DNA of 64,000 bases from assembly GCA_016873635.1 (NCBI GenBank), contig VGWJ01000006.1, forward strand, positions 3,102-67,101. Direction: 5' to 3'. Source of the DNA: Lentisphaerota bacterium. GTDB lineage: Bacteria > Verrucomicrobiota > Kiritimatiellia > UBA8416 > VGWJ01. Made by a program: the position numbers and the translations under genes. The notes below the pieces were generated by a model. It was not told the DNA's origin. It did not search any database and saw nothing but the letters and a program-made list of their open reading frames with translations. Position 1 is the first letter of the stretch; the number at the start of each line of letters is the position of its first letter. Below, piece by piece: positions 1 through 20,493 of the stretch.

Positions 1-3000
1 CGCTCCTGCTCGTCCTCGTGCAGGATGCGCCGCTGATCGAGCTCCTGCGTGGCGCGCTCCTGCTCTTCGCTCAGGGACAGCTGTTCCTGGCGGAGTTGCT
101 CGACCTGCAGGGCGAGCTCGTCCTCGCGCTGGCGGTTGCGGGCGCGCTCCTCTTCGGCCATGGATCTCTGCTGCTCGAGCTCCTGGGTGGCTTCCTCCAG
201 GCTCAGGGCGACGCCGCGGTGCTCGTCCTGCAGCTGGCTGAGGCGCGCGGCGAAGTCGGCCCGCTCCTGTTCGCCGCGCTGGCGCGTTTCGGAGGCCATG
301 GCCCGCTCCTGATCGAATTCGCGCCTGAGTTGATCGTAGCGGTCCTGCGCGTCCCGCAGGGCCTTCTCGTACGCGGCGAGCTTTTCCTCCGCGGTCTGTC
401 GCCGCTGCGCTTCGTCCTCGACCTGCGTGCGCGCGGAGGTGACCGCGTCTTCCCGCTGGGCGATGCGCTCGCGCTCCTCTTCGATCTGGCGGCGGGCCTG
501 CGCCAGCTCCTGCTCGCGCTTCCGGCGCAGCTTCTGCTCTTCGTCGAACAGCTTTCTCTGCCGGCCCAGTTCGTCGGCCTGCTGCTGCGCGCGCGTGCGT
601 TCGGTCTGGAAAATCCTGCGGTCTTCGTCGACCTTGACGTTGAGCGCGCGGTACCGCTCCTGGGTCTGTTCCATGGCCTTCTGGAAATCATCCTCGCGCC
701 GGGTGAGCTCCTGCTGCGCCGTTTCGTAGAGCTTCCGCAGCTCGGCCAGCTCCTGGTCCTTCTGCCGGAGGAGGGCCTCGGACGCCTCGACGCGCTCGGC
801 GCGCTGCGCCAGGTTCTCCTGCAGCGCCCGGTAGTCGGCTTGCGCCTGCGCGATGCGGTTCTCGGCTTCCGCCTGGCGCTCGGCCAGTTGCGCGCGCAGC
901 GCCTCGGCGGCCTCGGTCTGGCGGGCGGCCTGCTGCCGTGCGCCGTCGATCTCGGCCTGCAGCGACTGGAGCTTCTGCTCCGCCTGCTCGAGCCGATGCC
1001 GCGCCAGTCGCTCCTGCTCCGTCGACGTCTTGTCGAGTTCGGCGCTGAGCGTCTTCTGCTCGTCCAGCTCCGCGCGCGCCCTCCCGAGCTGCGCCTGCAT
1101 GTCCTCGCGCTCGCGCTGCAGGCGCGCGACGTGTTCGTTGAGCGCCTTTTCCCTGGTCTGGACGTTTTCCTCGGCCGAGGCATACAGCTCGGTCAGACGG
1201 GTCAGCTCGCGGCGTTCCTGGTCGAGGGCGAGGTGCAGTTCCTGCACCGTCTTGCGGCCCTCTTCAAGCTGCTCTTCGAGATAGGTCTTCTCGTTGCGCA
1301 GGCCCTCGATCTCGTCGCTCAGCGAGCTTTCGCGCTGGCGGCTGTCCCACTCGATCTGGTCCAGCCTGGCCGTGGTCTCGGCGCAGCGGCGCTGCAGCTC
1401 GTCGATGCGCGACTCGGCGGCGGCGTCGCGCGCGCGTCCTTCCTGGGCGGCCTGTTCGGCGGCGGCGCGCTGCTCGGCGAGATCCTCCTCGCGGCGCCGC
1501 AGCTCTTCGCGCGCGTCGTCCCGCAGCTTGGTCATTTCCTCGAGCTCGAGCTCCCTGTCGCCCAGGCGGCGCGTAAGCTCGCGGCACTCGTCCTGGACCT
1601 GGTCGAGGCGCTGCGCCAGCTCGTTGTCGGTCTTCTGCGCCCGCTCCTTCAGTTCGGCGACCACCGCGCGCTCCTGCCCCAGCTCCCTTTCCAGGGCGGC
1701 GGCGCGCGCGGCGCGCTGGTCGCGATCGGCGGCGAGCGCGCGCAGGCGCGCGCCGAGCTCGCCCTCCTTCTCGCTGCCGATGGCCATGGCGTCGTCGCGT
1801 TCGCGGCGCGCCAGATCCAGCTCGGCCTCCAGTTCGCCGATCTTCTCCAGCGCGGCCTTGCGGCGCTCGTAGAGCTTGCGGTGTTCCTCGAAATCGGTGC
1901 CGACAAGGCCTTGCAGGTCGAGTATGCGGTCCTGGAACGCCTTTTCGCGTTCGGCGAACGTCCGGCGCAGGCCCTCGAAAGCCTCGCGCTCGCGATCGAG
2001 ATCGGCGCCCAGGCGTTCGACCTCCTCGGCAAGCACGTGCTTGATGTGCTCGGTATGCGTCAGGCGCTCGGCTTCCAGCTCGCTGCTGCGCTGGAGGATG
2101 ACGTCGTAGCGGGCGCGCTCATCGCGGAGGTCGGCGCGCAAACCGTCCAGGGCCTTTGCCGCGCGCTGGCCCTGCGCCTGCAGGCCGTCAAGACGTCCGG
2201 CCAGGTCGCCCCGGCGCTCCTCGTCGCGTTTCGCGTCTGCGTCGGAAGCGGCGCGCAGGGCGGCCGCATGCGCCCTCGCCCCCGCGACTTCCTCAAGGGC
2301 CCGGCCGGCCGCCTGGCGCATGTCGCGGATGACCTCGCGCAGTCCCTGCTCCCGGGCGTGGCTTTCGTTGCGTATGCGCGCGAACTCGGTGATGCGCCGC
2401 TGGAGATCCTCTTCGGCGGCGCGCAGGCGCGCCGCGGCTTCGGTGGCCTTGCGCTCAAGCTCGGACGCCTGCCGCTTCATGTCGCCGACGCGAGTCTCGG
2501 TCTCCCGCGCCTGCGACTCCGTCCGGGCTCTCTCGGCTTCAAGCTCCGCGCGCGCGCGGTTGAGCTCTTCGGTGGCGCCGGCCAGCGCGGCCTTGAGCTG
2601 TTCGATGCGGGCGCTGAGGTCGCGGGCCTGCGCTTCGGCGTCGGCTCTCTCGGCCTCGAGCCGGCCGCGCGTCGCGCTCAGGTCTTCTACCGTCCCGGCC
2701 AGCGCGCGGTCCAGCTCCTCGATTCGCGCGTTGAGGTCGCGGGCCTGCGCTTCGGCGCGGTTCTTTTCGGTTTCGAGCTGCGCGCGGGCGTCCTCGCGTT
2801 CCTTTGTGGCGTCGGCGAGCGCGGCGTTGAGCTGTTCGATGCGGGCGTTGAGGTCGCGGGCCTGCGCTTCGGCGCGGTTCTTTTCGTCCTCGATCTGCTT
2901 CCTGATGCCGCTCAGATCGTCCTTGCTGCCGGCGAGCGCGCGGTTGAGCTGTTCGATCTGCGCGGCCCGGGCCGTGCTCTGGCGCTCGGCTTCGGTCAGC

Positions 3001-4013
3001 TTGGACGCCGTTTCCTGCGCCGAGCGTTCGAGTTCCGCGATCCGGTCGCGCATGGAGGTGAAGCGCGACTCCGTCTCCACCGCCATTCGCTCGCGGCCGG
3101 AGCCCATCGTCTCGATCTCGCGGCGCGCGGCAAGGAGGGCCTGCGTGGCCTGGTCGGCGTTCCGCCGGAGGGTATCGATTTCGCGGCGCAGCTCGTTCTC
3201 GCGTGTCCGGCTGCGTTCCTGCGCCTGCAAGCCGCTGGCCCGCTCGTCGCGCAGGGCTTTGCGGGCGCGGTCCAGGCGCGCGGCCGCGTCGGCCGCGCGG
3301 GACGCGAGGTCGTCGGCGGCGCGGCTCAGTCCGGCGAGTCGCTCGCCGTCGCCGCGTTTCGCGGCCGCCTGCTGCGCGCGTTCGGCCGCCAGGCGCTCGC
3401 GCGTCTGATCCAGCTCCTTCTCCATGGCGGCGGCGCCGGAGGAGATATCCTGGATGCGGCGCTGCAGGTCATGCTCGCGCGTGCGGCTCTCGGTCTGCAG
3501 CGCGTCAAGCCGTCGCGCGCGTTCCTGGAGGTCCTTCTCCGTCTCGCGCAGGCGGCCGGCCGCCTCGGCGGCCTGTCTTTCCAGCTCCGTCATCCTTTCG
3601 AGATTCTTCTTCAGCGCGGCCATGTCCTCGCCGGCGGGCGCCACGCCGAGAATGACCGCCTTCCGGGCGCCGACGGTGGTTTGCTCGCCGGTTTCCGCGT
3701 TGCGCAGGGGCGCGTCTTCGGTGATGGTCCCTTCCACCACGAGGTCGGCCAGGGCGCGGATGTTAAGCGGGCCGTACGGGGTTCCGTCGGCCAGGGTGAC
3801 CGTCCAGACCATGCGGAGTTCCCTGAGGTTTTCGACGGGAACCCACTTGCGATTGTCGGCGGAAACCTCGTTTCCGGGCGCAATGCGGCCCTGCTCGGCC
3901 CAGGCGATGAGGTCTTTGAGAGGGGCGGGTCCGAACACGGAACCGTCGTCGATCTTGAGGTACCACTGGTCGGCCGGGCCGGCCTTGTCTGTCGGTTTCA
4001 CTGGTTCGGGCAT
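1..4013 (-). CDS. Large coiled-coil protein, C-terminus beyond window. N-terminus has two tandem GYF-like/DUF4339 domains (WYLKIDDGSVFGPAPLKDLIAWAEQGRI... and MVWTVTLADGTPYGPLNIRALADLV...), followed by >1200 aa of E/R/A/Q/L-rich heptad-like coiled coil.
   Basis: I translated the reverse complement myself. It is open from the ATG at 4013..4011 (MPEPVKPTDKAGPADQWYLK...) through position 1 with no stop, and the composition is a typical coiled coil. The same-register + ORF 18..4073 is >30% Leu with almost no E/K, so it is the antisense shadow. The gene is absent from the ORF track, presumably because it has no stop inside the window. Confidence 0.7.
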   Translation of the reverse strand, partial: MPEPVKPTDKAGPADQWYLKIDDGSVFGPAPLKDLIAWAEQGRIAPGNEVSADNRKWVPVENLRELRMVWTVTLADGTPYGPLNIRALADLVVEGTITEDAPLRNAETGEQTTVGARKAVILGVAPAGEDMAALKKNLERMTELERQAAEAAGRLRETEKDLQERARRLDALQTESRTREHDLQRRIQDISSGAAAMEKELDQTRERLAAERAQQAAAKRGDGERLAGLSRAADDLASRAADAAARLDRARKALRDERASGLQAQERSRTRENELRREIDTLRRNADQATQALLAARREIETMGSGRERMAVETESRFTSMRDRIAELERSAQETASKLTEAERQSTARAAQIEQLNRALAGSKDDLSGIRKQIEDEKNRAEAQARDLNARIEQLNAALADATKEREDARAQLETEKNRAEAQARDLNARIEELDRALAGTVEDLSATRGRLEAERADAEAQARDLSARIEQLKAALAGATEELNRARAELEAERARTESQARETETRVGDMKRQASELERKATEAAARLRAAEEDLQRRITEFARIRNESHAREQGLREVIRDMRQAAGRALEEVAGARAHAAALRAASDADAKRDEERRGDLAGRLDGLQAQGQRAAKALDGLRADLRDERARYDVILQRSSELEAERLTHTEHIKHVLAEEVERLGADLDREREAFEGLRRTFAEREKAFQDRILDLQGLVGTDFEEHRKLYERRKAALEKIGELEAELDLARRERDDAMAIGSEKEGELGARLRALAADRDQRAARAAALERELGQERAVVAELKERAQKTDNELAQRLDQVQDECRELTRRLGDRELELEEMTKLRDDAREELRRREEDLAEQRAAAEQAAQEGRARDAAAESRIDELQRRCAETTARLDQIEWDSRQRESSLSDEIEGLRNEKTYLEEQLEEGRKTVQELHLALDQERRELTRLTELYASAEENVQTREKALNEHVARLQREREDMQAQLGRARAELDEQKTLSAELDKTSTEQERLARHRLEQAEQKLQSLQAEIDGARQQAARQTEAAEALRAQLAERQAEAENRIAQAQADYRALQENLAQRAERVEASEALLRQKDQELAELRKLYETAQQELTRREDDFQKAMEQTQERYRALNVKVDEDRRIFQTERTRAQQQADELGRQRKLFDEEQKLRRKREQELAQARRQIEEERERIAQREDAVTSARTQVEDEAQRRQTAEEKLAAYEKALRDAQDRYDQLRREFDQERAMASETRQRGEQERADFAARLSQLQDEHRGVALSLEEATQELEQQRSMAEEERARNRQREDELALQVEQLRQEQLSLSEEQERATQELDQRRILHEDEQE
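2581..2970 (-). repeat. Intragenic direct tandem repeats, 3-4 copies with a ~117-120 bp period, inside the coiled-coil gene. They encode repeated ~39-aa units (...KNRAEAQARDLNARIEQLNAALA...).
   Basis: Near-identical DNA blocks containing gagctgttcgatgcgggcg(c/t)tgaggtcgcgggcctgcgcttcggcg at ~2581, ~2698, ~2812 and a partial one at ~2929. Confidence 0.6.
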
Positions 4014-4097
4014 GCCACACCTCGTTGTTGCGAGCGTCTGCGCCACGGCGCCGGGGGCGGAGGGCCGTCATGATTCCGCGCCACTCAAGTACACGGT

Positions 4098-4400
4098 TCA
4101 AGGAGTGTCAAGCTGTTTTGCCATGCGGAAGTCATCCATCACGAATCCCTTCCCGATGTCCCGGACCGGTTCGCCGGTCACGGCGAACCCCAGGCGGCGG
4201 TAGAAAGCGATGGAGCCGGCGTCATGGCGGTTGACTGTCAGCCACAATTCCCGGATGCCCAGGCCGGTGCGGAGCTCTTCAACGAAGGCGCTCACGGCCG
4301 CGGCGAGCCGTTGCCGTTGCGCCGTTCCCAGGACCGCCGCTCGCGCGGCGGGTTGCGGCAGGGCTGGCGGTTCGCGGCGACGTACACGCTTTCCTCGCCC
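4098..4400 (-). pseudogene. GNAT-family N-acetyltransferase-like C-terminal region (motif A/B-like ...LRTGLGIRELWLTVNRHDAGSIAFYRRLGFAVTGEP...). Probably a fragment or remnant: its ORF 4098..4745 would overlap the 3' end of dnaE by several hundred bp.
   Basis: The last ~70-95 aa of minus ORF 4098..4745 have a clear GNAT motif-B signature (N..A..Y..LGF). The N-terminal 120 aa are Arg/Pro-rich junk and overlap the well-conserved dnaE C-terminus. Confidence 0.3.
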
Positions 4401-7400
4401 AGCGCGTGCTGCAGGCGCGCGATCAGCTCTTCCGACGGCGTGACCCGCATGCTCTCGTCGGCATCGAGAAAAACCTTCTCCCCCGACGGAAACAGCAGGC
4501 AGATGCCCACCGGGACGTTGCCCGGGTGCACGCGGAGCATTTCCCGCACGGTTGCGAGCCTCTGCTCGTCGAGGCCGGCCGCGGGGATGTGCAGGCTGAT
4601 GCGTTTGGCGAACAGCCGCGGCGCTTCGGACAGGGGGTAGATCTCGGCCGCGACGAGGCGCGGGGTATCCTCGCGCCTGGAGATTTCGCCGCACACCATC
4701 ACGGCGCTCTCGGGGACCAGCGCGGCGCCGTACTGGCGGTAGCATTCGGGGAAGACCAGGACTTCCATCGAGCCCTCCATGTCCTCCAGCGTGACCACGG
4801 CCATGGGCTCCTTCTTCTTGGTCATGCGCCTGGCGAGCTGGGCGACGATGCCGCCCACGCGCGTGGAGGCGCGGTCGTCCAGGGCGGCCGCGCCGGGGAT
4901 GTCGGCCAGGCGGTAGCGCATGAGAAGCGGCGCGTGCTCGGCGAGGGGGTGGCCGCTGAGATACATGCCCAGGAGCTCTTTCTCCCCCGCGAGGAGCTGG
5001 CTCTGCGGCCAGGGCGGGCGGTCGGGCAGGCCGGCGTCGACGCCGCGGTCCGGGCTGTCGGCGGCGAGCAGGTCGAAAAGCCGGCCCTGGCCCGTTTCCC
5101 GGTCGCGGACCGTCGCGCTCGCCCGCGCCATCGCGAATTCGATGCCGTTGAAGACCTTGGCCCGGTGCGCATCCAGCGAATCCATGGCCCCGCAGCGGGC
5201 GAGGCTTTCGATGGCCTTGCGGTTGACGAGCTGGCTGTCCAGGCGCGTGCAGAAATCCACGAGGCCGGCGTAGGGGCCGCCGCGCTGCCGCTCGCGCGCG
5301 ACCGCCTCGGCGGCGCCCGCCCCCACGTTCTTGACGCCGGCCAGCCCGAAGCGCACGGCGCTTTCCGACGGCGTGAAGCGCACGCCGCTGGCGTTCACGT
5401 CCGGGGGCAGCACGGCCAGGCCCATGGCCTGGGCTTCGGCAATGAATACGGGGATCTTGTCGGAATTGCCGATTTCGCTGGAAAGCAGCGCGGCCATGAA
5501 CTCGGACGGGAAATTCGCCTTCAGGTAGGCCGTCTGATAGGCGATCACGGCGTAGCCGGTGCTGTGGGCCTTGTTGAAGCCGTAGCCGGCGAACGATTCC
5601 ATGTTGTCGAAGATGCGGCCCGCCAGGGCCTTGGGAATCCGGTTGGCCTTCTCGCAGCCGGCCACGAACTTGGCGCGCTGCTGCCGCATGACTTCCGCCT
5701 TCTTCTTGCCCATGGCGCGGCGCAGGATGTCGGCCTCGCCCAGGGAATAGCCGGCCAGGACGTTGGCGGCCCGCTGCACCTGCTCCTGGTAGACCATCAC
5801 GCCGTACGTTTCCTTGAGGATCGGCTCGAGCAGGGGGTGGTCGTAGGCGATCGCGGCTTTCCCGCTCTTGCGCTCGATGTAGGCGGGAAGCATCTCCATG
5901 GGCCCCGGCCGGTAGAGGGCGATCATGGCGATGAGGTCCTCGACGCAGTTGATCCCGATGCGCCGGATCAGGTCGCGCATGCCCGTGCTTTCAAGCTGGA
6001 ACACGCCGACGGTGTCGCCGCGGTTCAGCAGGTCGTAGGTGGGCCGGTCGTCGAGCGGCAGGTTGTCGATGTCGACGGTCAGGCCCCTGGTCTCGCGCGC
6101 CAGCGCCACGGATTCCTGGATGACGTCGAGCGTCTTGAGCCCGAGGAAGTCCATCTTGAGCAGCCCGATCTCGCCCAGCGGCTCCATGGAAAACTGCGTA
6201 ACCGGCTCGCCGTCCTTGTCGCGGGCCAGCGGGATGATCTCCACGAGGGGTTTCTCGCCGATGACCACGCCCGCGGCGTGCGTGCCCGCGTTGCGGTAGA
6301 GCCCCTCCAGGGAGAGGCCCAGGTCCAGGATGCGGCGGCAATCGTCATCCGTCTCGTAGGCCTTGCGCAGCTCGGGGTTCAGGTCCAGGGCGCGCGGCAG
6401 AGTCATCTTGGGGTCTTCGGGCACCATCTTGGAGAGCTGGTCGCACTTGCCGTAGGGGATCTCGAGCACACGGCCGACGTCGCGGATGACCATCTTGGCG
6501 CCGAGCGAGCCGAAGGTGATGATCTGGGCCACGTTCTCGCGGCCGTACTTGCCCTTGACGTAGTCGATGACTTCCCCGCGGCGGGCCTGGCAGAAGTCGA
6601 TATCGAAGTCCGGCGGTGAGACGCGTTCGGGGTTGAGGAAGCGCTCGAAGATGAGCCCGTAGCGCAGGGGGTCGATGGCCACGATGCCCAGCGCGTAGGC
6701 CAGCAGGCTGCCGGCGCCGGAGCCGCGGCCGGGCCCCACGGGGATGCCGGCGTTGCGCGCCCAGTGCACGAAGTCCCAGACCACCAGGTAGTAGTTGATG
6801 TAGCCGGTCTTCTCGATCACGGCCAGCTCGTGCCGGAAGCGCTCGACGATCTCGCGCTCGCGCGCGTCGCGCGGCCGGTCGCAGTTCTCCACGCCGTACC
6901 TGGCGCGGATGCCTTCGCGGCACAGCCGCGTGAGATATTCCTTCTGGGTGAGGCCGTCCGGAGCGTGGTAGGCCGGGAAGTGCGGCCGGCCGAATTCAAG
7001 CTCGACATTGCAGCGCTCGGCGATGTCCGCCGTGCGGTCCAGGGCCTCGGGAACGTCGCCGAAGAGCCGCTCCATCTCGGCGCGGCTCTTCATGTAGAAC
7101 TGGTCGGTCTGGTAGCGCATGCGCTTGGGATCGCTCATCACGGTCTGGGTCTGCAGGCAGAGCAGCACCTCGTGGGCGGCGGCGTGTTCCTTTTCGAGGT
7201 AGTGCACGTCGTTGGTGGCCACCAGCGGCAGCCCGGTCCGGCGCGACAGCTCCACGGACAGCTTGTTCACCTGCCGCTGCTCGCGGATGCCGTGATCCTG
7301 GATCTCGAGGTAGAAGTTGTCCTTGCCCAGGATGTCCGCGTATGCGCCGGCGGCCTGCGCGGCGCGGGGCATGTCGCTGTCGAGCAGCCGCGACGCGACT

Positions 7401-7861
7401 TCGCCGTGCAGGCAGGACGACAGCCCGATCAGGCCCCCGGCGTGATCGGCGAGGATCTGTTTGTCGATGCGCGGCTTGTAGTAGAAGCCTTCGAGGTGCG
7501 CGGCGCTGACGAGTTTGATCAGATTATGGTAGCCGCGGTCGTCGGCGGCCAGGAGCACAAGGTGATAGTTGGAAGGCTTGCGGTCCTCGGCCCGGCGTTC
7601 GTGGCGGCTGCCCTCGGCCACGTAGACCTCGCAGCCGATTATGGGGCGCAGGCCGTGGGCGCGGGCCTCGCCGTAGAAGTCCACCACGCCGTACATGACC
7701 CCGTGATCGGTGATCGCCACGGCGGACATGTCGCTGGCCCGCGCCTTTTCCATTACCTGGGCCGGACGGCACGCGCCGTCAAGAAGGCTGTAGCACGTGT
7801 GGAGATGCAGATGGACGAACGGCTTGCTCACGGTGGGGCAGTGTAGCCGAACGCCCGGCAT
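4292..7861 (-). CDS. dnaE: DNA polymerase III alpha subunit DnaE (PHP domain HLHLHTCYSLLDGA, polymerase core, OB fold).
   Basis: 1189-aa product with canonical DnaE motifs throughout. Start is the ATG at 7861 (MPGVRLHCPTVSKPFVHLHLHT) or the GTG at 7831. The longer ORF to 8038 is an upstream extension. Confidence 0.9.
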   Translation of the reverse strand: MPGVRLHCPTVSKPFVHLHLHTCYSLLDGACRPAQVMEKARASDMSAVAITDHGVMYGVVDFYGEARAHGLRPIIGCEVYVAEGSRHERRAEDRKPSNYHLVLLAADDRGYHNLIKLVSAAHLEGFYYKPRIDKQILADHAGGLIGLSSCLHGEVASRLLDSDMPRAAQAAGAYADILGKDNFYLEIQDHGIREQRQVNKLSVELSRRTGLPLVATNDVHYLEKEHAAAHEVLLCLQTQTVMSDPKRMRYQTDQFYMKSRAEMERLFGDVPEALDRTADIAERCNVELEFGRPHFPAYHAPDGLTQKEYLTRLCREGIRARYGVENCDRPRDAREREIVERFRHELAVIEKTGYINYYLVVWDFVHWARNAGIPVGPGRGSGAGSLLAYALGIVAIDPLRYGLIFERFLNPERVSPPDFDIDFCQARRGEVIDYVKGKYGRENVAQIITFGSLGAKMVIRDVGRVLEIPYGKCDQLSKMVPEDPKMTLPRALDLNPELRKAYETDDDCRRILDLGLSLEGLYRNAGTHAAGVVIGEKPLVEIIPLARDKDGEPVTQFSMEPLGEIGLLKMDFLGLKTLDVIQESVALARETRGLTVDIDNLPLDDRPTYDLLNRGDTVGVFQLESTGMRDLIRRIGINCVEDLIAMIALYRPGPMEMLPAYIERKSGKAAIAYDHPLLEPILKETYGVMVYQEQVQRAANVLAGYSLGEADILRRAMGKKKAEVMRQQRAKFVAGCEKANRIPKALAGRIFDNMESFAGYGFNKAHSTGYAVIAYQTAYLKANFPSEFMAALLSSEIGNSDKIPVFIAEAQAMGLAVLPPDVNASGVRFTPSESAVRFGLAGVKNVGAGAAEAVARERQRGGPYAGLVDFCTRLDSQLVNRKAIESLARCGAMDSLDAHRAKVFNGIEFAMARASATVRDRETGQGRLFDLLAADSPDRGVDAGLPDRPPWPQSQLLAGEKELLGMYLSGHPLAEHAPLLMRYRLADIPGAAALDDRASTRVGGIVAQLARRMTKKKEPMAVVTLEDMEGSMEVLVFPECYRQYGAALVPESAVMVCGEISRREDTPRLVAAEIYPLSEAPRLFAKRISLHIPAAGLDEQRLATVREMLRVHPGNVPVGICLLFPSGEKVFLDADESMRVTPSEELIARLQHALGEESVYVAANRQPCRNPPRERRSWERRNGNGSPRP

Positions 7862-8030
7862 CGAACAAGAAATCGATCCGCGCCCCTCGCGAGGAACGAA
7901 GGCCGGAATGAGAATTGCCGTCTCTGTGCTTGGCAGAAGCGCGCGCCGCGGCCTATATTCGCTGAAACGCCCGCGACGGGCAGAGGTGCGTTTGAGAACG
8001 GCACATACGCTGCGCAGACGGCCGCGACGG

Positions 8031-8861
8031 ATGGTCATCGTCCCGTTCGCGCTGGCCGCGTGCCTTTCGGCGGCCGCGGGGGAGGTGGACGTCGGGCTCG
8101 AGCTGGAATACGACGGCTATCTGCAGTGCGAGCCGGTGATGGTCTTCCTCAAGCTGCACAACGACACGGCCGCTCCGCTGGTGATCGCCCCTGACCCCGG
8201 CGCCGGCGCCGACACCGCCGCGGTCACCTTCGAGGTCAAACGCTACACGCGCAACAGGACCGTGGATATCAAGCCGTCCGGCGCGGCGCCGGTGGTGAAA
8301 CGCGTCACGGTGCATCCCAACGGCGACCAGGAAATCCTGGCGGACATTTCCATGTTTTACGGGCTGGCAACGCTCGGGCGCTACAGCGTAACGGCCCGCG
8401 TGGAGTGGTTCGGCCGCCGCTACCAGTCGCCGGTGCGGAGCTTCGAGGTGGTGCGCGGGATCGACGTCGCGCACGCCGCGCGCACGGTGCCGGAATACCC
8501 GGATCGCCTGCGCGAATATGACCTGCGCTACTGGACGCGCCGCGGCGCGGAATATCTGTTTCTGACGGTTTCCGAAGAAGACGGGAAGATCAACTGCGGC
8601 GTGTTCCCGCTGGGCCGCATCGTGCGCATGGGCAAGCCCGTTTTGCGCGTCGACCGCGACGGCAACGTGGTCGTCGTGCACCAGTCCGGCCGGAACTGCC
8701 TGACGCGCTCGGCGTTCACCTCCACGCGGGAGGGGGTGCGGTTCGTGGACCAGACTTATCACCTGCCGGACGGCGGGCCCTATCCGTTCGTGCGCGGCGC
8801 GGAAGGCGTTCCCGCCGGCGGCACCAACGGGGCGTCCGCCAAGCCCCCGGCCGGCGGGTGA
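8031..8861 (+). CDS. Hypothetical secreted protein with N-terminal signal peptide (MVIVPFALAACLSAAAG).
   Basis: Internal ATG at 8031 of ORF 7797..8861. Product has diverse, non-low-complexity composition and is divergent from dnaE. Confidence 0.55.
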   Translation: MVIVPFALAACLSAAAGEVDVGLELEYDGYLQCEPVMVFLKLHNDTAAPLVIAPDPGAGADTAAVTFEVKRYTRNRTVDIKPSGAAPVVKRVTVHPNGDQEILADISMFYGLATLGRYSVTARVEWFGRRYQSPVRSFEVVRGIDVAHAARTVPEYPDRLREYDLRYWTRRGAEYLFLTVSEEDGKINCGVFPLGRIVRMGKPVLRVDRDGNVVVVHQSGRNCLTRSAFTSTREGVRFVDQTYHLPDGGPYPFVRGAEGVPAGGTNGASAKPPAGG

Positions 8862-9274: not shown

Positions 9275-9359
9275 GTGCACCCGTGGTGAAACTGGTATAC
9301 ACGCAAGGTTCAGGTCCTTGTGGCCGCTAAGGCCGTGGGGGTTCGAATCCCTCCGGGTG
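9275..9359 (+). tRNA. tRNA-Leu, anticodon CAG. Class II tRNA with a long variable arm, 85 nt, CCA not encoded.
   Basis: Hand-folded: acceptor GCACCCG/CGGGTGC; 3-bp D-stem GTG/CAC with a GG-containing loop; anticodon stem CAAGG/CCTTG with loop TTCAGGT (U33, CAG, G37); variable arm GGCC-loop-GGCC; T-arm GGGGG-TTCGAAT-CCCTC. Confidence 0.8.
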
Positions 9360-9431
9360 CACCCGCCTCCGCCCCGGCGGCGGCTGTGGCGGACGGATCC
9401 GGCGCGTTGCCCGAAGCGGACGAGGTGTCTG

Positions 9432-10376
9432 ATGGCTTTCGGCGAAGGCAAGATCTGGTATGACGGCCGTTTCGTGGACTGGGCTGACGCCACGTGCCAC
9501 GTGATGAGCCACGCCCTGCATTACGGCTCGTCGGTCTTCGAGGGCATCCGCTGCTACGCCCGGCCGGCGGGGCCGGCCGTATTCCGGCTGGACGACCATC
9601 TCCGGCGCCTGTACGACTCGGCCAAGATCTACCGCATGGAAATCCCGTTCGGCCTGGCGCAGCTGCGCCAGGCCGTCCTGGACACCGTGCGCGTCAACGG
9701 CCTGTCTTCCTGCTACATCCGGCCGCTGGCGTTCCGCGGCATGAAGGCCATGGGGGTCAACCCCCTGACCTGTCCGGTGAAGTGCGTCATCGCGGCCTGG
9801 GACTGGGGGAAGTACCTGGGCGAGGATTCCATGGTCGACGGCGTGTCGGTGCGCGTTTCGTCCTGGCGGCGCGCGGCGCCCGACACGTTCCCGGCGCTGG
9901 CCAAGGCCGGCGGGAACTACCTCAATTCGCAGCTGATCAAGATCGAGGCCACTCAGGACGGGTTCGACGAGGGCATCGCCCTGGACCACTACGGCTTTGT
10001 CTCGGAGGGCTCGGGCGAAAACATCTTCATGGTCCGCAACGGCGTGATATACACCCCGCCGTCCAGTTCCTCGATCCTGCCGGGCGTGACGCGGCACTGC
10101 GTGTTCACGCTGGCCCGCGAGATGGGCGTGCGCATCCACCAGCAGGTGATCCCGCGCGAGGCGCTGTATATCGCCGATGAGGTTTTCTTCTCGGGCACGG
10201 CCGCGGAGATCACGCCGGTGACGCGCATCGACAACATCGCCATCGGCGACGGCAGGCGCGGCCCGGTCACGGAGCGGATCCAGGGCGCGTTCTTCGAGAT
10301 CGTCGAGGGCGGCGCGGAAGACCGCCACAACTGGTTTACGCCCGTGGGCGCCGCCGCCCCGGGCGGCAAGGACTGA
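9432..10376 (+). CDS. ilvE: Branched-chain amino acid aminotransferase.
   Basis: Product MAFGEGKIWYDGRFVDW...; class IV aminotransferase motifs (ALHYGSSVFEGIRCY, SGTAAEITPV). Start is the internal ATG at 9432 of ORF 9318..10376. Confidence 0.9.
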   Translation: MAFGEGKIWYDGRFVDWADATCHVMSHALHYGSSVFEGIRCYARPAGPAVFRLDDHLRRLYDSAKIYRMEIPFGLAQLRQAVLDTVRVNGLSSCYIRPLAFRGMKAMGVNPLTCPVKCVIAAWDWGKYLGEDSMVDGVSVRVSSWRRAAPDTFPALAKAGGNYLNSQLIKIEATQDGFDEGIALDHYGFVSEGSGENIFMVRNGVIYTPPSSSSILPGVTRHCVFTLAREMGVRIHQQVIPREALYIADEVFFSGTAAEITPVTRIDNIAIGDGRRGPVTERIQGAFFEIVEGGAEDRHNWFTPVGAAAPGGKD

Positions 10377-10381
10377 CGGCC

Positions 10382-10888
10382 ATGCTGTGCGACGTGTGCA
10401 AGAAAAAGCCGGCCACGGTGCATTTCAAGGAGGCCTGCAACGGCCAGATCCGCGAGATGCACGTGTGCGAGGAGTGCGCCGTGCAGAGCGGGCTGGACGC
10501 GGGCGCGCCCGTTTCGCTGGCCGACCTGCTGTTCGGCGCGGCCGCCAAGCCGCCGCCGGAAAGCCTGCCGGACAAGTCGTGCCCCAACTGCCACATGCGG
10601 CAGCGCGACTTCTCCAAGACGTCGCGCCTGGGCTGCGCGCGGTGCTACGACGCGTTCCGCGAGGAAATGCGGCCGATGCTGGACGGCATGCAGAAAGGCC
10701 GGCAGCACGTCGGCAAGGTGCCGGCGCGGGTGCGCTGTGCGCAAAGCGCCGCGGTGCTGCGCCGGCGCCTGGACACGGCGGTGGCGGCGGAGAAATTCGA
10801 GGAGGCCGCGCACCTGCGCGACCGGATTGCGGAAAGCGAAGCGCGCGCGCGGCCGGCGCGCGGGCGAAACACGGCAGGCGTGGACTGA
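10382..10888 (+). CDS. mcsA: McsA-like activator of protein arginine kinase (N-terminal zinc-finger Cys pairs plus C-terminal UVR-like motif).
   Basis: CDVCKKK...CEEC...CPNC...CARC cysteine pairs and a ...AAEKFEEAAHLRDRI UVR motif. Sits immediately upstream of mcsB. Confidence 0.8.
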   Translation: MLCDVCKKKPATVHFKEACNGQIREMHVCEECAVQSGLDAGAPVSLADLLFGAAAKPPPESLPDKSCPNCHMRQRDFSKTSRLGCARCYDAFREEMRPMLDGMQKGRQHVGKVPARVRCAQSAAVLRRRLDTAVAAEKFEEAAHLRDRIAESEARARPARGRNTAGVD

Positions 10889-10889
10889 G

Positions 10890-11951
10890 ATGCTGGTTGA
10901 CGATCTGGTGCGAAACCCCGGCTCCTGGCTGTCGCACGGCCGGGATACCGGCGTTGTGGTCAGCAGCCGCGCGCGGCTGGCGCGGAACATCCGGGACGTC
11001 GCGTTTCCCGACTGGGCCGGCGAGGAGGAGCGGCTGCGGGTCTGGAGCGAAATGCGCGGGGTGCTGGCCGGGATGCCCGGCCTGGCCGACGCGCTGATCC
11101 TGGACATGGGCGAACTGGCTCCCGTGGACCGGGCCGTGCTGCGCGAGCGGCACCTGGCCAGCCTGGACCTCACGGAAAAGGGCGCCGGCAGCGGACTCGT
11201 GGTCAGCCAGAGCGAGCGCATCGCCGTGATGGTCAACGAGGAGGACCACCTCCGGCTGCAGGCCATCACGCCGGGCATGGAGCTGCTGGAGATGTGGCGC
11301 GAGCTGGACGCCCTGGACACGGCGCTGGAGGAGCGCGTGGAATACGCCTACCATCCGGAGCTGGGCTACCTGACGGCCTGCCCCACGAACGTGGGCACGG
11401 GCCTGCGGGGCAGCGTCATGCTGCACCTGGCGGGGCTGGCCCTGATGAACGAAGTCGAAGCCGTGATCAAGGGCCTCAACCGCATGGGCTACGAGGTCCG
11501 CGGGCTGTTGGGCGAAGGCTCCGAAGCTTCGGGCAACATGTACCAGATATCCAACCGCGTCACGCTGGGACAGAACGAAGAGGACACCGTGCGCGGCATC
11601 ATCGCCATGGCGGAAGAAGTCGTGCGGCACGAGACCAACGCGCGCCTGCGCCTGATGGAGGGCCGGCGCGTGAACGTGCTGGATCACGTCGGGCGGGCCT
11701 ACGGCATTCTCTCGCACGCGCGCGTGCTGTCGTCGGGCGAGGCCGTGCACCTGCTCTCCGCCCTGCGCCTGGGCGTGGATTTCGGCCTCGTGGAGAACCT
11801 GACTCCCGCGTCGATCAACGACGCCATGCTGCTGACCCAGCCGGGCCACCTGCAGAAAACCAGCAAGCGCAACCTGAGCCCGGGCGAAAGGGACGAACTC
11901 CGGGCCGGCATGATCAAGAAACACCTGAAGGGCGTGTGCATCGCGCGCTGA
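10890..11951 (+). CDS. mcsB: Protein arginine kinase McsB (ATP:guanido phosphotransferase family).
   Basis: Conserved ...CPTNVGTGLRGSVMLHLAGL... phosphagen-kinase active-site region. ATG at 10890 lies one nt after the mcsA stop. Confidence 0.9.
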   Translation: MLVDDLVRNPGSWLSHGRDTGVVVSSRARLARNIRDVAFPDWAGEEERLRVWSEMRGVLAGMPGLADALILDMGELAPVDRAVLRERHLASLDLTEKGAGSGLVVSQSERIAVMVNEEDHLRLQAITPGMELLEMWRELDALDTALEERVEYAYHPELGYLTACPTNVGTGLRGSVMLHLAGLALMNEVEAVIKGLNRMGYEVRGLLGEGSEASGNMYQISNRVTLGQNEEDTVRGIIAMAEEVVRHETNARLRLMEGRRVNVLDHVGRAYGILSHARVLSSGEAVHLLSALRLGVDFGLVENLTPASINDAMLLTQPGHLQKTSKRNLSPGERDELRAGMIKKHLKGVCIAR

Positions 11952-11958
11952 GGAAAAC

Positions 11959-14478
<2,520 letters not shown>

Positions 14479-14489
14479 CCTGTGGGTGT

Positions 14490-15626
14490 ATGAGCGCCAT
14501 CGACGCCGTCTTCGTCCACTGCGCGGACCTGGACCGGCTTCACTACCCGGCGGATTGCCCGTTCAAGACCTCGCGCGCCGGACGCACCCGCGACGCGGTT
14601 GCCGCCATGGGGCTGCTGAACGGCCCGCGCCGCAAGGTCGTCGAGCCGCGGCCGCTGACCCGGGCGGAACTCGAGGCCTTTCACGAACCGCGCTATCTCG
14701 ACGCCCTCCGGGCCGCGGCCGGCGGAGAACTGGGGCCGGAGGGCTTCGCGATGGGCCTCGGCACTCCGGACTGCCCCGTCTTTCCCGACATGTACGACTA
14801 CCCGGCCCTGGCCTGCGGCGCCACGGTCGAGGGCGCGCGCCTGCTCCTGGAAGGGGCGGCGCGCGTCGCGTTCAACCCTTCGGGCGGGTATCACCACGCC
14901 ATGCCCGACCGCGCGGGCGGCTTCTGCTACCTGAACGATATCGTGTTCGGGTGCCGCGCGCTGGCCGCGGCGGGGCGGCGGGTAGCGTTCCTGGACATCG
15001 ACGTGCACCATTGCGACGGCGTGCAGGCGGCCTTCTACGACCGGGCCGACGTCATGACCATTTCCCTGCACGAGACCGGGCACAGCCTCTTTCCGGGCAC
15101 GGGCTTCGAGGACCACATCGGCGAAGGCGCCGGGCGCGGCTACAGCGTGAACGTGCCGCTGCCGCCGGGCACGGACGACAGGGCCTACCTGGCCGCTTTC
15201 CACGCCGTGGCCTCGCCGCTCATGGAGGCTTTCGCGCCGGACGCGGTTGTCGTGGAGGCGGGCATGGACGCCTTGAGCGGCGATCCGCTGGCGCACCTGC
15301 GCCTTACCAACAACGCCTACGCCGAGATTGCGGAATGGGCCGTGGCCTTCGGGCGGCCGCTGCTGGTCACGGGCGGCGGCGGCTACAACGCCGACAACAC
15401 CGTGCGCGGCTGGTCGCTGCTGTGGAGCATCCTCTGCGGGGCGGGCGCCGACAACGAGATGAGCCTCGGGCTGGGCGGCGTCATGCTGGAAGGCACGGAA
15501 TGGCACGGCGGCCTGCGGGACCGGCCCATGCTCTCGCGCCCGGGAAGGATTCCGGGAATTGACGACGCGATCGCGCGGACCGTGGAGCGCGTGAAACGCC
15601 TGGTGTTTCCGTTGCACGGGATTTGA
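14490..15626 (+). CDS. Histone deacetylase-family protein (AcuC/acetoin-utilization-like deacetylase).
   Basis: HDAC signature GFCYLNDIV, DIDVHHCDGVQ, SLHE..H.FPGTG. Confidence 0.85.
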   Translation: MSAIDAVFVHCADLDRLHYPADCPFKTSRAGRTRDAVAAMGLLNGPRRKVVEPRPLTRAELEAFHEPRYLDALRAAAGGELGPEGFAMGLGTPDCPVFPDMYDYPALACGATVEGARLLLEGAARVAFNPSGGYHHAMPDRAGGFCYLNDIVFGCRALAAAGRRVAFLDIDVHHCDGVQAAFYDRADVMTISLHETGHSLFPGTGFEDHIGEGAGRGYSVNVPLPPGTDDRAYLAAFHAVASPLMEAFAPDAVVVEAGMDALSGDPLAHLRLTNNAYAEIAEWAVAFGRPLLVTGGGGYNADNTVRGWSLLWSILCGAGADNEMSLGLGGVMLEGTEWHGGLRDRPMLSRPGRIPGIDDAIARTVERVKRLVFPLHGI

Positions 15627-15674
15627 CGCATCGGCCTTGGCGTGGCCGGGGCCGCGTGGTAGTCTGGCGCGCAT

Positions 15675-17024
15675 ATGGCCTCTCTGCTGATAGTGGACGA
15701 CGACCAGTCGATCCAGACGCAGATGAAATGGTCGCTGGGCGGCGACTATTCCGTCGAACTGGCCGGAGACCGCCCCGGCGCGGTCGCGGCCGCCGCGGGC
15801 AGCGGGGCCGCGGTGATCCTGCTTGACCTGGGCCTGCCGCCGCGTCCCGATGAGCCCGAAGAAGGCATCGCCGCGATGCGCGAACTGCTGGAGGCCAACC
15901 CCCACCGCAAGATCATCGTCATCACCGGCCAGGGGGAAAAGGGCAACGCGCTGCGGGCCGTGGCCGAAGGCGCCTACGATTTCCTCAACAAGCCCATCGA
16001 CATGGATGAGTTGAAAATCATTCTCAAGCGGGCCTTCCACCTGGTGCGGCTGGAAGCGGAATACCGCGAGCTGCAGGGCAAGCTTGCGGCCGACGGCTTT
16101 GAGGGCATGCTGGGCACGAGCCCGCAGATGCAGGCCGTTTTCACGGCCGTTCGCAAGGTTGCGCTGGCCGATGCCCCGGTATTGATCCTGGGCGAGAGCG
16201 GCACGGGCAAGGAGATGGTGGCGCAAGCCATTCACCGCCGCAGCCGGCGGCAGGCGGGCCCTTTCGCGGCCATCAACTGCAGCGCAATTCCCGAAAACCT
16301 CCTGGAGAGCGAGCTCTTCGGGCACGAAAAGGGGGCCTTCACCGGCGCCCACGCCCAGCGGCCGGGCCGCATGGAGGCCGCCGCGGGAGGGACCCTGTTT
16401 CTGGATGAGATCGGGGAAGTCCCGCTCGCCCTGCAGGTCAAGCTGCTGCGCTTCCTGCAGGAGAAGAGCATCCAGCGCGTCGGCGGCCGCCGCCCGATCG
16501 AGATCGACGCGCGCGTGCTCGCGGCCACCAACGTCGACCTGAAACAGGCCATGGCCGCGGAGCGTTTCAGGGAAGACCTCTACTACCGGCTGGCGGTCGT
16601 GACCGTCAGCCTGCCGCCCCTGCGCGAGCGAACGGGGGACATCCCCGTCCTGGCCAAGGTCATCCTGCGCCGCTTTGCGCTGGAGAACAACCGCAAGCTG
16701 TCCGGCTTCAACGCGGAAGCGCTGCGCGTGATGTCGGCCTACGCCTGGCCCGGCAACGTGCGCGAAATGGAGAACCGCATACGCCGGGCGGCCATCATGG
16801 CGGAAGGCCGGCACGTCACGCCCGAGGACCTGGAACTCGATCCGGCCGCGGTGGGCCTCAAGATTACCACCTTGAAAGAAGCCCGCGAAAAGGTCGAGCG
16901 CGAGGCGATCAGGAGAGCCATGGCCCGCCACCGCAACAACCTCAGCCGCGCCGCCGAGGAGCTCGACGTCAGCCGGCCCACCCTGTACGAGCTGATGGAC
17001 AAGCTCGGCATCAGGCGGGAGTGA
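15675..17024 (+). CDS. Sigma54-dependent response regulator of the PrsR/PEP-CTERM-box type (REC + AAA+ sigma54 activator + C-terminal HTH).
   Basis: The receiver has the PrsR hallmark LLDLGLPPRPDEPEEG. GAFTG loop and [15 protein letters not shown] present. C-terminal Fis-type HTH. Confidence 0.85.
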   Translation: MASLLIVDDDQSIQTQMKWSLGGDYSVELAGDRPGAVAAAAGSGAAVILLDLGLPPRPDEPEEGIAAMRELLEANPHRKIIVITGQGEKGNALRAVAEGAYDFLNKPIDMDELKIILKRAFHLVRLEAEYRELQGKLAADGFEGMLGTSPQMQAVFTAVRKVALADAPVLILGESGTGKEMVAQAIHRRSRRQAGPFAAINCSAIPENLLESELFGHEKGAFTGAHAQRPGRMEAAAGGTLFLDEIGEVPLALQVKLLRFLQEKSIQRVGGRRPIEIDARVLAATNVDLKQAMAAERFREDLYYRLAVVTVSLPPLRERTGDIPVLAKVILRRFALENNRKLSGFNAEALRVMSAYAWPGNVREMENRIRRAAIMAEGRHVTPEDLELDPAAVGLKITTLKEAREKVEREAIRRAMARHRNNLSRAAEELDVSRPTLYELMDKLGIRRE

Positions 17025-18954: not shown

Positions 18955-20493
18955 TCACGGGCCCGGGGACTTGACGTAGATCAGCTTGTGGTCGCCGGGT
19001 TCGTAGAAATCCTCGACGACGCCGGCTTTGCGGAAGCCGTTGCGCTCGTAGAAACGGCGCGGCGGCTCGTAGTCGCTTCGCGATGACGTCTCGACCACGA
19101 TCAGGCGTCCCTGGCGGGCGCGGATCGAGGATTCGGCGCGGGCCAGGAGGGCGCGCGCCACTCCGCGTCGGTGGCATGCCGGGCTGACGGCTATCCAGTA
19201 CAGGTCGAAAGCGCCTGCCGTGCACGGCGTCGGGCCGTAGCAGGTCCACCCCACGACGGCGCCGTCGAGCGTGGCCGTGAATGACTGGTAATGCCCGCCC
19301 TCGCCCTTTGCGAGCGCGTCGTCGAGCACTTCCCTGGCCACGTCCAGTTCGGACGGCCGGAAGACGCCCGTTTCCTTGAGCAGGTTCAGAATGGGCTGCC
19401 GGTCGTGGGGCGCGGACCACGCAATCTGCAGATCCGCCGGGGGCGCGGACGTGCGCGACGGGGGCGGCTCCGGGGCCACGGGCTGGCCCGCGTTGGCAAG
19501 CAGCGCGGCCACGAACTGGGCAAAGCTGATTCCCGCGGCGTGCAGGGCGGAGGCGAAACCGGCGTCGGGCGCGATATCGGGGTTGGGATTCACTTCGATC
19601 ACGAACGGCCGGCCTTCGGCGTCGAGGCGCATGTCCACGCGCGCGTAGTCGCGGCATCCCATGCGCTTCCAGGCGGCCAGGGCCGCGGCGCGGATTGCAT
19701 CGGCCGCCAACTGATCGACGTCGGCCGGCACGCGGCGGATGGTGTGGGCGTATTCGAACGAATCCTCGATCCACTTTGCGCGGTAGTCCACGATGCGCGG
19801 CAGATGGCGCGGGAAGGCGCTGAAGTCGATTTCGGCCAGCGGCAGGACCGACACCTCGCCGCCTCGCTCCAGCAGCGCGACATTGAATTCGCGTCCCTCG
19901 ATGTAGCGCTCGATCAATGCGGGCTGATGCAATTCCCTGTGGATACGGGCGGCGCGTTCGAGCACGGCGGCGCGGTCGGCCCCGGACAGGACGGAAGAGG
20001 CGTCAATGCCTTCGCCGGCGTCGGCGCGCAGGGGTTTGACGATGACGGTCGCGGAGGGAACAAAGGCCGGCAGGTCGGTGTCGCCGGCGTCCAGGACCGC
20101 GGCGACGGGCACGGGGATGCCGGCCGCGCGCATTGCGACTTTGCTTTGCCATTTGTCAAGCGCCAGCAACTGGCAGGCCGTGCCGCTGCCGGTCCAGGCC
20201 TTGCCGAGGGCCGCGCACACGGCGGGCACGAGGCAGGCATCGGTCGCGGACCCGTCCAGGCTCTCGACCAGGTTGATGACGCAAGGTTCGCGGCCGGAGG
20301 ATATCTCCCGGCCGGCCTCGCGCAGCGTGCGCACGGCGGCCAGGCGGTGCGGCACGCCGAGCTCGGTCAGGCCCGCGGCGACGGCGGCGGCTTCGACGAG
20401 CACGCCGGCGTCGGATTCGGCGTCGCGGCGGCTGCCGTCGGCGGCCGGGCCGCGCGGCTGATTGTGGAGGACGAGGACGGGGGGGCGTTCCAC
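18955..20493 (-). CDS. Fusion protein: N-terminal D-Ala-D-Ala-ligase-family ATP-grasp enzyme plus C-terminal GNAT acetyltransferase domain.
   Basis: The ATP-grasp core (...KPLRADAGEGIDASSV..., EIDFSAF, IEVNPNPD) is followed by a ~150-aa GNAT domain (...YWIAVSPACHRRGVARALLARAE...RFYERNGF). Start overlaps the upstream stop. Confidence 0.85.
   Translation of the reverse strand: MERPPVLVLHNQPRGPAADGSRRDAESDAGVLVEAAAVAAGLTELGVPHRLAAVRTLREAGREISSGREPCVINLVESLDGSATDACLVPAVCAALGKAWTGSGTACQLLALDKWQSKVAMRAAGIPVPVAAVLDAGDTDLPAFVPSATVIVKPLRADAGEGIDASSVLSGADRAAVLERAARIHRELHQPALIERYIEGREFNVALLERGGEVSVLPLAEIDFSAFPRHLPRIVDYRAKWIEDSFEYAHTIRRVPADVDQLAADAIRAAALAAWKRMGCRDYARVDMRLDAEGRPFVIEVNPNPDIAPDAGFASALHAAGISFAQFVAALLANAGQPVAPEPPPSRTSAPPADLQIAWSAPHDRQPILNLLKETGVFRPSELDVAREVLDDALAKGEGGHYQSFTATLDGAVVGWTCYGPTPCTAGAFDLYWIAVSPACHRRGVARALLARAESSIRARQGRLIVVETSSRSDYEPPRRFYERNGFRKAGVVEDFYEPGDHKLIYVKSPGP

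Follow-up and report, generated by a model that had tools for sequence, protein, structure and literature searches.

Long heptad rods without enzymatic domains, variable in length and marked by stuttered internal repeats, are known in bacteria, and include Scy and FilP of Streptomyces, crescentin of Caulobacter and AglZ. Among the systems described to date, one of the closest to the gene reported here is the GltJ/AglZ pair of the Myxococcus xanthus Agl-Glt gliding machinery (PDB 7z3c; PMC11135422). The GYF domain of GltJ binds a proline-rich sequence of AglZ with micromolar affinity, and does so through a non-canonical beta-sheet surface; the binding surface of bacterial GYF domains differs from that of eukaryotic GYF domains, and a missing canonical G-Y-F triad is reported to be the rule in the former (PMC11135422). 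The DNA analysed here, hereafter the window, is a stretch of 64,000 nucleotides (nt) from a Lentisphaerota bacterium (assembly GCA_016873635.1, contig VGWJ01000006.1, positions 3,102 to 67,101), and hosts at its left edge, on the minus strand, a gene denominated here GYF-rod. The visible part of its product is cytoplasmic, and consists of a tandem GYF-fold head followed by an uninterrupted heptad rod. Such a protein is known in kind, as it associates a coiled-coil scaffold with a GYF-type adaptor; its particular architecture and its operon partner have remained undescribed.

Two overlapping reading frames, and one signal, have to be considered at this end of the window:

1..4013, minus strand: gene for residues 1-1337 of the GYF-coiled-coil protein, an open frame with 0.88 GC at third codon positions (GC3) and homologous heads in 72 loci; its 3' end falls outside the window.
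4020..4023, minus strand: Shine-Dalgarno-like GAGG, read from the sequence, 6 nt before the ATG at 4013-4011.
18..4073, plus strand: antisense shadow open reading frame (ORF) of 1,351 codons, codon-aligned with the minus frame and with GC1 (0.877) exceeding GC3 (0.791); not a gene.

Translation of the reverse complement of 1..4013 yields 1,337 codons free of stops, which run from the ATG at 4013 off the left edge, as had been claimed in the original prediction. An in-frame stop is found 20 codons upstream of this ATG. Because of this stop, of the GAGG and of an MPE/MPD N-terminus common to the relatives and to the minus-frame protein, the start at 4013 is regarded as well placed. GC content at the three codon positions is 0.795/0.444/0.880 in the minus frame and 0.688/0.443/0.908 in the neighbouring dnaE gene, and GC3 ranges from 0.82 to 0.93 in the other 37 window ORFs selected by GC3. 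The values of the plus-strand ORF (0.877/0.451/0.791) are the mirror image of those of the minus frame. The comparison of GC3 on the two strands, proposed along with the original prediction, hence settles the coding strand in favour of the minus frame. Codon boundaries of both frames fall at multiples of 3, stops in the plus frame need TTA, CTA or TCA codons in the sense strand of the gene, and the minus-strand gene has none of these, so that a full-length shadow results. The gene itself is missing from the list of ORFs because frames running off a sequence end are omitted from the listing. The interpretation of the listed ORF as an antisense shadow is therefore correct, given the mirrored GC pattern and the aligned codons, but the composition attributed to it has to be amended in part: leucine does not exceed 30%, amounting to 20.9%, and the supposed scarcity of acidic residues and lysine corresponds to 9.1% aspartate plus glutamate and 0.8% lysine. 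That the plus-strand ORF is the real gene, or that neither strand codes, could be argued from the sheer presence of a 1,351-codon open frame. Yet an excess of GC1 over GC3 is the reverse of what is seen in the genuine genes of the window, and homology, Pfam and structural evidence all fall on the minus frame, none on the plus ORF. Codon-position GC and the minus-frame homologues led to the rejection of the plus ORF as a gene, and this alternative is left with practically no probability.

The head is made of two modules:

3816..3965, minus strand: GYF_2 module 1, residues 17-66, matched by Pfam GYF_2; the better conserved of the two.
3660..3806, minus strand: GYF_2-like module 2, residues 70-118, a diverged duplicate identified by hhalign and by model topology.

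Two N-terminal repeats of about 50 amino acids (aa), resembling GYF/DUF4339 domains, had been noticed from the sequence, and a Pfam search of the minus frame had been proposed; the first repeat is recognized by Pfam, the second by its relationship to the first. Residues 17-66 match GYF_2 (PF14237, formerly DUF4339) over positions 1-50 of the 50-position profile, scoring 30.6 bits where 25.8 are required, and the isolated head, when scanned alone, is still recognized at 26.4 bits. The second repeat alone is under the cut-off (15.7 bits, E 0.013). Profiles of the two modules, built from 68 family heads, were matched to each other by hhalign with 97.1% probability (E 5e-11); second modules of relatives exceed the cut-off of GYF_ATXR3, and AlphaFold models feature the order strand-strand-helix-strand-strand in both modules. 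On these three grounds module 2 is read as a diverged duplicate of module 1, and probably as a GYF_2-type domain. The fold is the small beta-beta-alpha-beta-beta one, and is superposable on solved GYF domains. The head model, obtained from a 38-row alignment of database proteins, has a mean predicted local distance difference test score (pLDDT) of 85.7 and a predicted template modelling score (pTM) of 0.70; 100 of its 133 residues are at or above 90, the modules exceed a pLDDT of 90, and the model suggests that the two form a fixed unit. The canonical signature GP[YF]xxxx[MV]xxWxxxGYF, in which the final triad forms the proline-binding pocket, reads GPAPLKDLIAWAEQGRI in the window, G42-R43-I44 replacing the triad. 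Positions W17, G28, P29, W38, R43, W57, W70, G81 and P82 are near-invariant in the head, and the commonest residue at a position has on average a frequency of 0.59 in module 1 versus 0.47 in module 2.

The remainder of the visible protein is a rod, with a repeated tract inside:

3..3635, minus strand: coiled-coil rod, residues 127-1337, devoid of proline, with 81% hydrophobic residues at a/d positions and a period-3.5 power of z = 26.
2547..2897, minus strand: three tandem 39-residue repeats, residues 373-489 (Tandem Repeats Finder period 117 nt, 3.1-3.3 copies), followed by a degenerate fourth copy to 2430.

The minus-frame protein is composed largely of alanine (16%), glutamate (15.5%), arginine (15%), leucine (11%) and glutamine (8%), and has a net charge of -54. 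Not a single proline occurs in the 1,211 residues of the rod, P126 being the only one found after the head in the visible part. When the best register is taken in 35-residue segments, the occupancy of a/d positions by hydrophobics given above compares with 54% in shuffled sequences, and 99% of the rod is covered by segments in which this figure is at least 60%. The Fourier signal over shuffles is restricted to period 3.5, nothing being seen at periods 3.0 and 4.0. The heptad coiled coil of more than 1200 residues rich in Glu, Arg, Ala, Gln and Leu, described before from the sequence, is thus real, in view of the periodicity and of the lack of proline. Within it, the 39-residue repeats are pairwise 59-67% identical. 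With the rise of about 0.148 nm per residue that applies to coiled coils, the visible rod would extend over about 180 nm. No segment resembling a transmembrane (TM) helix was found in the visible protein (maximum 19-residue hydropathy 0.81), no signal peptide or Walker A motif in its 1,337 residues, and no catalytic domain was detected in the minus-frame protein by Pfam and NCBIfam scans.

Coiled coils of this composition easily attract the label of SMC/Rad50-type chromosome segregation ATPase. The NCBIfam model SMC_prok_B matches the protein with an E value of 1.8e-18 and 65.8 bits, other SMC/Rad50 models match as well, and in the Joint Genome Institute (JGI) annotation the C-terminal fragment of one relative is named 'chromosome segregation ATPase'. 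The score has however to be compared with a cut-off of 567 bits, and all these matches are confined to the coiled-coil arms of the models; moreover, a GYF pair is found at the N-terminus in place of an ABC ATPase head, and orthologs lack an ABC-type C-terminal half-head. For the visible 1,337 residues, membership of the SMC/Rad50 group is refuted by the sub-cut-off scores, by the N-terminal GYF pair and by the lack of Walker A, and the hypothesis is extremely improbable. The JGI name is wrong; all other public names of relatives are 'hypothetical protein'. A lesson may be drawn for annotation, as high-GC coiled-coil genes yield both full-length antisense shadow ORFs and false SMC or chromosome segregation ATPase names, and both have been encountered here.

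A profile of the head was searched against a set of species-representative genomes, and 72 related loci were retrieved. All are in metagenome-assembled or single-amplified genomes, and belong to Kiritimatiellia, Lentisphaerae, Victivallales or Verrucomicrobiota, with the exception of one weak match in Pirellulaceae. The family is conserved and lineage-restricted, being found almost only in Kiritimatiellia, Lentisphaerae and Verrucomicrobiota. The closest heads, 47-62% identical to that of the window protein, are carried by proteins of 1,427-2,752 aa, and the dnaE gene products of related loci are 52-65% identical to the one encoded in the window. The window therefore derives from a member of this PVC (Planctomycetes-Verrucomicrobia-Chlamydiae) group with a high GC content, about 70%. 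The window protein features both a tandem GYF head and a conserved rod block preceding the C-terminus, the two marks of the ortholog group. The double module as such is widespread: an exhaustive HMMER search with the double-module head profile retrieved 1,590 cluster representatives with E values up to 0.001, of which 1,051 have values of 1e-10 or lower. Proteins may carry one to four double modules, at either end or internally, and no Pfam domain other than GYF types was found in the sampled members. Shorter paralogs (about 220-700 aa) are also encoded in loci of the Planctomycetes-Verrucomicrobia-Chlamydiae (PVC) group, and are made of a head, a coiled coil, a proline-rich stretch and a short basic tail, often fitting (G/K)P(R/K/Q)(I/V)(R/K)L. 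In three loci, L004 (8032-12121), L049 (804-3592) and L065 (8949-11578), the gene is split into two adjacent genes, each with a double-GYF head of its own; in L049 and L065 a block of the type LEAQAQRE or LEEQLQRE lies close to the end of the first gene, and a tail of the FRxxPW type terminates the second. Searches of protein databases with either the head alone or the C-terminal profile retrieved short fragments only, and a search with the full-length query yielded a single protein, P0001, its filter of 8,000 candidates being saturated by coiled-coil words. Searches of the literature returned nothing on the GYF-rod family, GltJ being the only studied bacterial GYF domain found. The association of a GYF head with a very long coiled-coil rod, regarded from the beginning as an architecture not well characterized in bacteria, is accordingly uncharacterized, as far as names of relatives and literature searches tell.

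The C-terminus of the window protein lies beyond the edge, and its beginning is marked by the following feature:

3..176, minus strand: start of the conserved C-terminal rod block, residues 1280-1337, matched by the ortholog profile and ending in ILHEDEQE at the window edge.

The last 58 residues visible match positions 1-58 of the 190-position C-terminal profile of orthologs at 41.4 bits (hmmsearch). Exact searches with 60-mers and 50-mers for the continuation of the gene gave no match in the genome and metagenome contig collections. In the metagenome relative L074 an identical ILHEDEQE occurs, and the protein continues from there for another 268 residues, FRPRPWMRLK being the last of them. 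From the match to the start of the profile and from the extension in L074, about 220-270 residues are probably missing past the left edge, and the full protein would be about 1,550-1,600 aa long. By the same comparison, the window protein presumably bears the same C-terminal tail as its orthologs. Eighteen tail-bearing orthologs share a conserved C-terminus organized in blocks. The end of the rod (..QQKKFYDEEREQRR..KEQVLxRRIEQLQRDWR..KLEQAQREL) is followed by a short helix, PLxxLEAEAQxELxxWQ, then by an acidic proline-rich linker, and lastly by the extreme C-terminal FRPxPWMKLK. In family members, proline accounts for 11.7% of the last 60 residues versus 2.3% in the middle of the protein. When the ends of 70 complete proteins (L001-L072) were compared, ..FRPxPWMKLK was found in 20 and ..(G/K)P(R/K/Q)(I/V)(R/K)L(x0-2) in 16, in addition to near-variants; both types are basic.

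Genes located downstream in the orthologous loci provide further hints. Coordinates are given for the locus L003 as an example:

14820-15653 of L003, plus strand: protein X, a bitopic membrane protein; equivalents are found in 15 other loci.
15640-16209 of L003, minus strand: convergent lipoprotein with an LISGC lipobox signal peptide, a coiled coil and a C-terminal LysM domain; equivalents are found in 14 other loci.

X is an ORF of 230-336 aa encoded by the same strand as the rod gene, and begins -18 to +38 nt after the stop of the latter in 16 of the 18 tail-bearing loci; an X-related ORF is found within 5 kb in 17 of the 18. It has no match in Pfam and none above cut-off in NCBIfam, and NCBI names it 'hypothetical protein'. 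Its organization may be summarized as LPPK ... SLPVLEAFQEFLE ... one TM. The LPPK motif is located in the N-terminal region, and a conserved SLPVLEAFQEFLExERRRxRRR abuts the single hydrophobic segment. Since the basic motif directly precedes the TM segment, the positive-inside rule predicts a cytoplasmic N-terminus. The protein also has a coiled coil, a proline-rich stretch and a conserved ISPRG..WRLPIPE end. The pair formed by the rod gene and X is followed by the lipoprotein in 15 loci; mannose-6-phosphate isomerase follows in nine, and MurG is present in some.

Envelope-related neighbours such as the LysM lipoprotein and, in some loci, MurG, along with a long alpha-helical rod carrying internal repeats, might evoke a secreted or surface fibrillar protein, similar to an M-protein-like adhesin or an S-layer stalk. 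Signal peptide, TM segment, sorting motif and autotransporter domain are, however, all missing from the GYF-rod protein, its hydrophilic N-terminus leads straight into a GYF fold, and the sole characterized bacterial GYF domain is cytoplasmic (PMC11135422). The secreted adhesin was discarded for the hydrophilic N-terminus and for the lack of signal peptide and TM segment, and a secreted or surface fibre is very improbable.

With moderate confidence, and as a candidate role, the GYF-rod protein is viewed not as an enzyme but as a tether or scaffold of set length, acting at the membrane, whose GYF head would dock a proline-rich partner. Such a role, foreseen among other possibilities in the original prediction, is consistent with the occurrence of the membrane partner X in orthologs and of a conserved proline-rich basic tail. 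The protein would form a long, probably dimeric coiled-coil rod measuring about 200 nm, which X, the basic aromatic tail, or the two together would attach to the cytoplasmic membrane from inside the cell. By analogy with GltJ-AglZ, the head may dock a proline-rich sequence; candidates are found in the protein's own proline-rich tail and, in X, around the LPPK motif of the N-terminal region. The main ligand might thus be X, the protein's own tail, in a head-to-tail assembly, or a third protein.

Several points weigh against the scaffold or tether. Gene order is all that links the rod to the membrane through X. For every member of the family, ligand and location are putative. The dimeric state of the rod is a supposition. 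Tail, C-terminal blocks and X gene all lie outside the window, and are attributed to this locus through orthologs whose heads are 47-62% identical to that of the window protein. Finally, 34 of the 70 complete family proteins fit neither of the two regular expressions for the tail, several of them being near-variants, and P0001 (988 aa), the nearest full-length relative among database proteins, has no proline-rich tail.

The variability of the tail bears also on a different hypothesis, namely that the protein is a self-assembling filament or lattice, in which each head binds the proline-rich basic tail of the next rod to give a head-to-tail cytoskeletal polymer, and X serves solely as a nucleator or anchor. 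This hypothesis overlaps with the scaffold or tether, and differs from it in which ligand is the main one. Head and proline-rich or basic tail co-occur in long orthologs as well as in short paralogs, the split genes have kept a head on each piece, and a GYF domain is known, in GltJ, to bind the proline-rich sequence of a coiled-coil protein (PMC11135422). Against it, no tail can be recognized in P0001 or in roughly half of the family proteins, module 2 and the tail vary considerably, and the contact between head and tail is a candidate interaction. Self-assembly into a polymer is therefore unlikely, yet deserves some credit.

The preferred reading as a scaffold or tether at the membrane must also be set against what lies on the other side of the gene:

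4292..8038, minus strand: dnaE, DNA polymerase III alpha subunit (NCBIfam PRK06826, 1461 bits; Pfam PHP, DNA_pol3_alpha, finger, HHH_6 and OB domains).
4098..4334, minus strand: C-terminal half of a GNAT domain in the spacer (Acetyltransf_1 positions 66-116 of 116, 21.9 bits).

The placement of the rod gene near dnaE is real, the latter being identified by both NCBIfam and Pfam, and the GYF-rod gene does lie downstream of dnaE on the same strand; the two genes are not immediately adjoining, as dnaE ends at 4292 and a spacer of 278 nt separates them. The corresponding spacers are about 80-230 nt long in orthologous loci. The remaining portion of the GNAT ORF, up to 4745, is not matched by GNAT models and is superimposed, in a different frame, on the 3' end of dnaE. 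The spacer has room for no more than the C-terminal half of the domain; an intact acetyltransferase gene at this place was therefore dismissed, and the fragment is probably a gene remnant. No terminator-like site was found between dnaE and the GYF-rod gene in the window. Sufficient upstream sequence was available for 59 loci, and dnaE immediately precedes the rod gene in 14 of them; among tail-bearing orthologs this holds for 7 of 13. In the other loci the genes upstream are unrelated metabolic genes, often divergent. As the adjacency is kept in only part of the family, it provides weak evidence on function; a dnaE operon as a general rule is rejected, adjacency being partly conserved and upstream genes elsewhere unrelated.

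These data allow one to judge a tether linked to the replisome or the chromosome, in which the rod gene is tied to dnaE and its product serves to organize the nucleoid or the replication machinery, or to anchor either. The co-oriented dnaE that directly precedes the rod gene, in the window as in 14 related loci, would fit, as would the lack of a terminator-like site between the two genes and, in one clade, a downstream ORF resembling ParB_N (a weak match, below cut-off). The incomplete conservation of the adjacency and the metabolic genes replacing dnaE elsewhere speak against it; in addition, no DNA-binding or clamp-binding motif was detected by Pfam and NCBIfam scans, and the invariant partner is a membrane protein. 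A replisome link is accordingly improbable.

Other genes of the window have been annotated in passing. A tRNA-Leu (anticodon CAG) is located at 9276..9364 on the plus strand, and the listed ORF 9318..10376, a class IV aminotransferase, overlaps its 3' part, so that the true start of the aminotransferase must lie further downstream. At 10737..14478, plus strand, a McsB-like protein arginine kinase (ATP:guanido phosphotransferase) is directly followed by a ClpC-like ATPase (Clp_N, AAA, AAA_2, ClpB_D2-small). The McsB-ClpC pairing is best known from Firmicutes, and is found here in a PVC-type genome. The interval 14490..17024, also plus, encodes a histone-deacetylase-family protein and then an NtrC-type sigma-54 response regulator (Response_reg, Sigma54_activat and HTH_8). 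At 18955..20493, minus strand, a fusion ORF joins an N-terminal part similar to ATP-grasp and D-Ala-D-Ala ligases to a C-terminal GNAT acetyltransferase domain.

On a wider scale, the family might be the core of a cytoskeletal or 'molecular ruler' system anchored to the envelope, so far undescribed and specific to Kiritimatiellia/Lentisphaerae-type PVC bacteria. Rods of 200-400 nm, of a length specific to each genome, would polymerize or bridge by GYF-proline contacts, would be fixed to the membrane by X, and could be linked to peptidoglycan through the LysM lipoprotein. This extension is speculative, and on present evidence rather unlikely. If it were true, the ruler could set cell shape, the spacing of compartments or the geometry of the division site. 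Double-module GYF proteins are widespread, as the 1,590 cluster representatives indicate, and a ligand is known for GltJ only; a giant rod with two GYF modules, a tail peptide and a membrane partner offers, in a poorly studied uncultured lineage, a compact set of candidate interactions amenable to testing.

The comparison with known systems may be drawn as follows. In the GYF-rod family the tandem GYF modules are located on the coiled-coil protein itself, whereas the GYF domain of GltJ is carried by a membrane protein; the family lacks ZnR and receiver domains, no link to MglA/Glt genes was detected for it, and it is hosted by PVC bacteria rather than by Myxococcota. Nor does the protein belong among those similar to AglZ, as no Response_reg match was found, a GYF pair occupies the N-terminus, and a single proline (P126) follows the head in the visible part. 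It differs from the eukaryotic GYF proteins CD2BP2, GIGYF1/2 and Smy2 in the replaced triad, and the minus-frame protein has no match to PF02213, the canonical eukaryotic GYF domain, at E <= 1. Coiled-coil arms of similar composition and sub-threshold profile matches are shared with SMC/Rad50 proteins, but ATPase head, hinge and Walker A are not. There is also a likeness to the intermediate-filament-like scaffolds: the GYF-rod protein is similarly a long, continuous heptad rod without a catalytic domain, and its 39-residue repeat, made of 5 heptads plus 4 residues, gives a stutter as in coiled-coil-rich scaffolds. Self-assembly into filaments independent of nucleotides, a mark of such scaffolds, is a candidate property of the GYF-rod protein. 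Unlike these scaffolds, with which it has no detectable sequence homology, the family combines the rod with a folded tandem-GYF head, a conserved C-terminal peptide and a dedicated bitopic neighbour.

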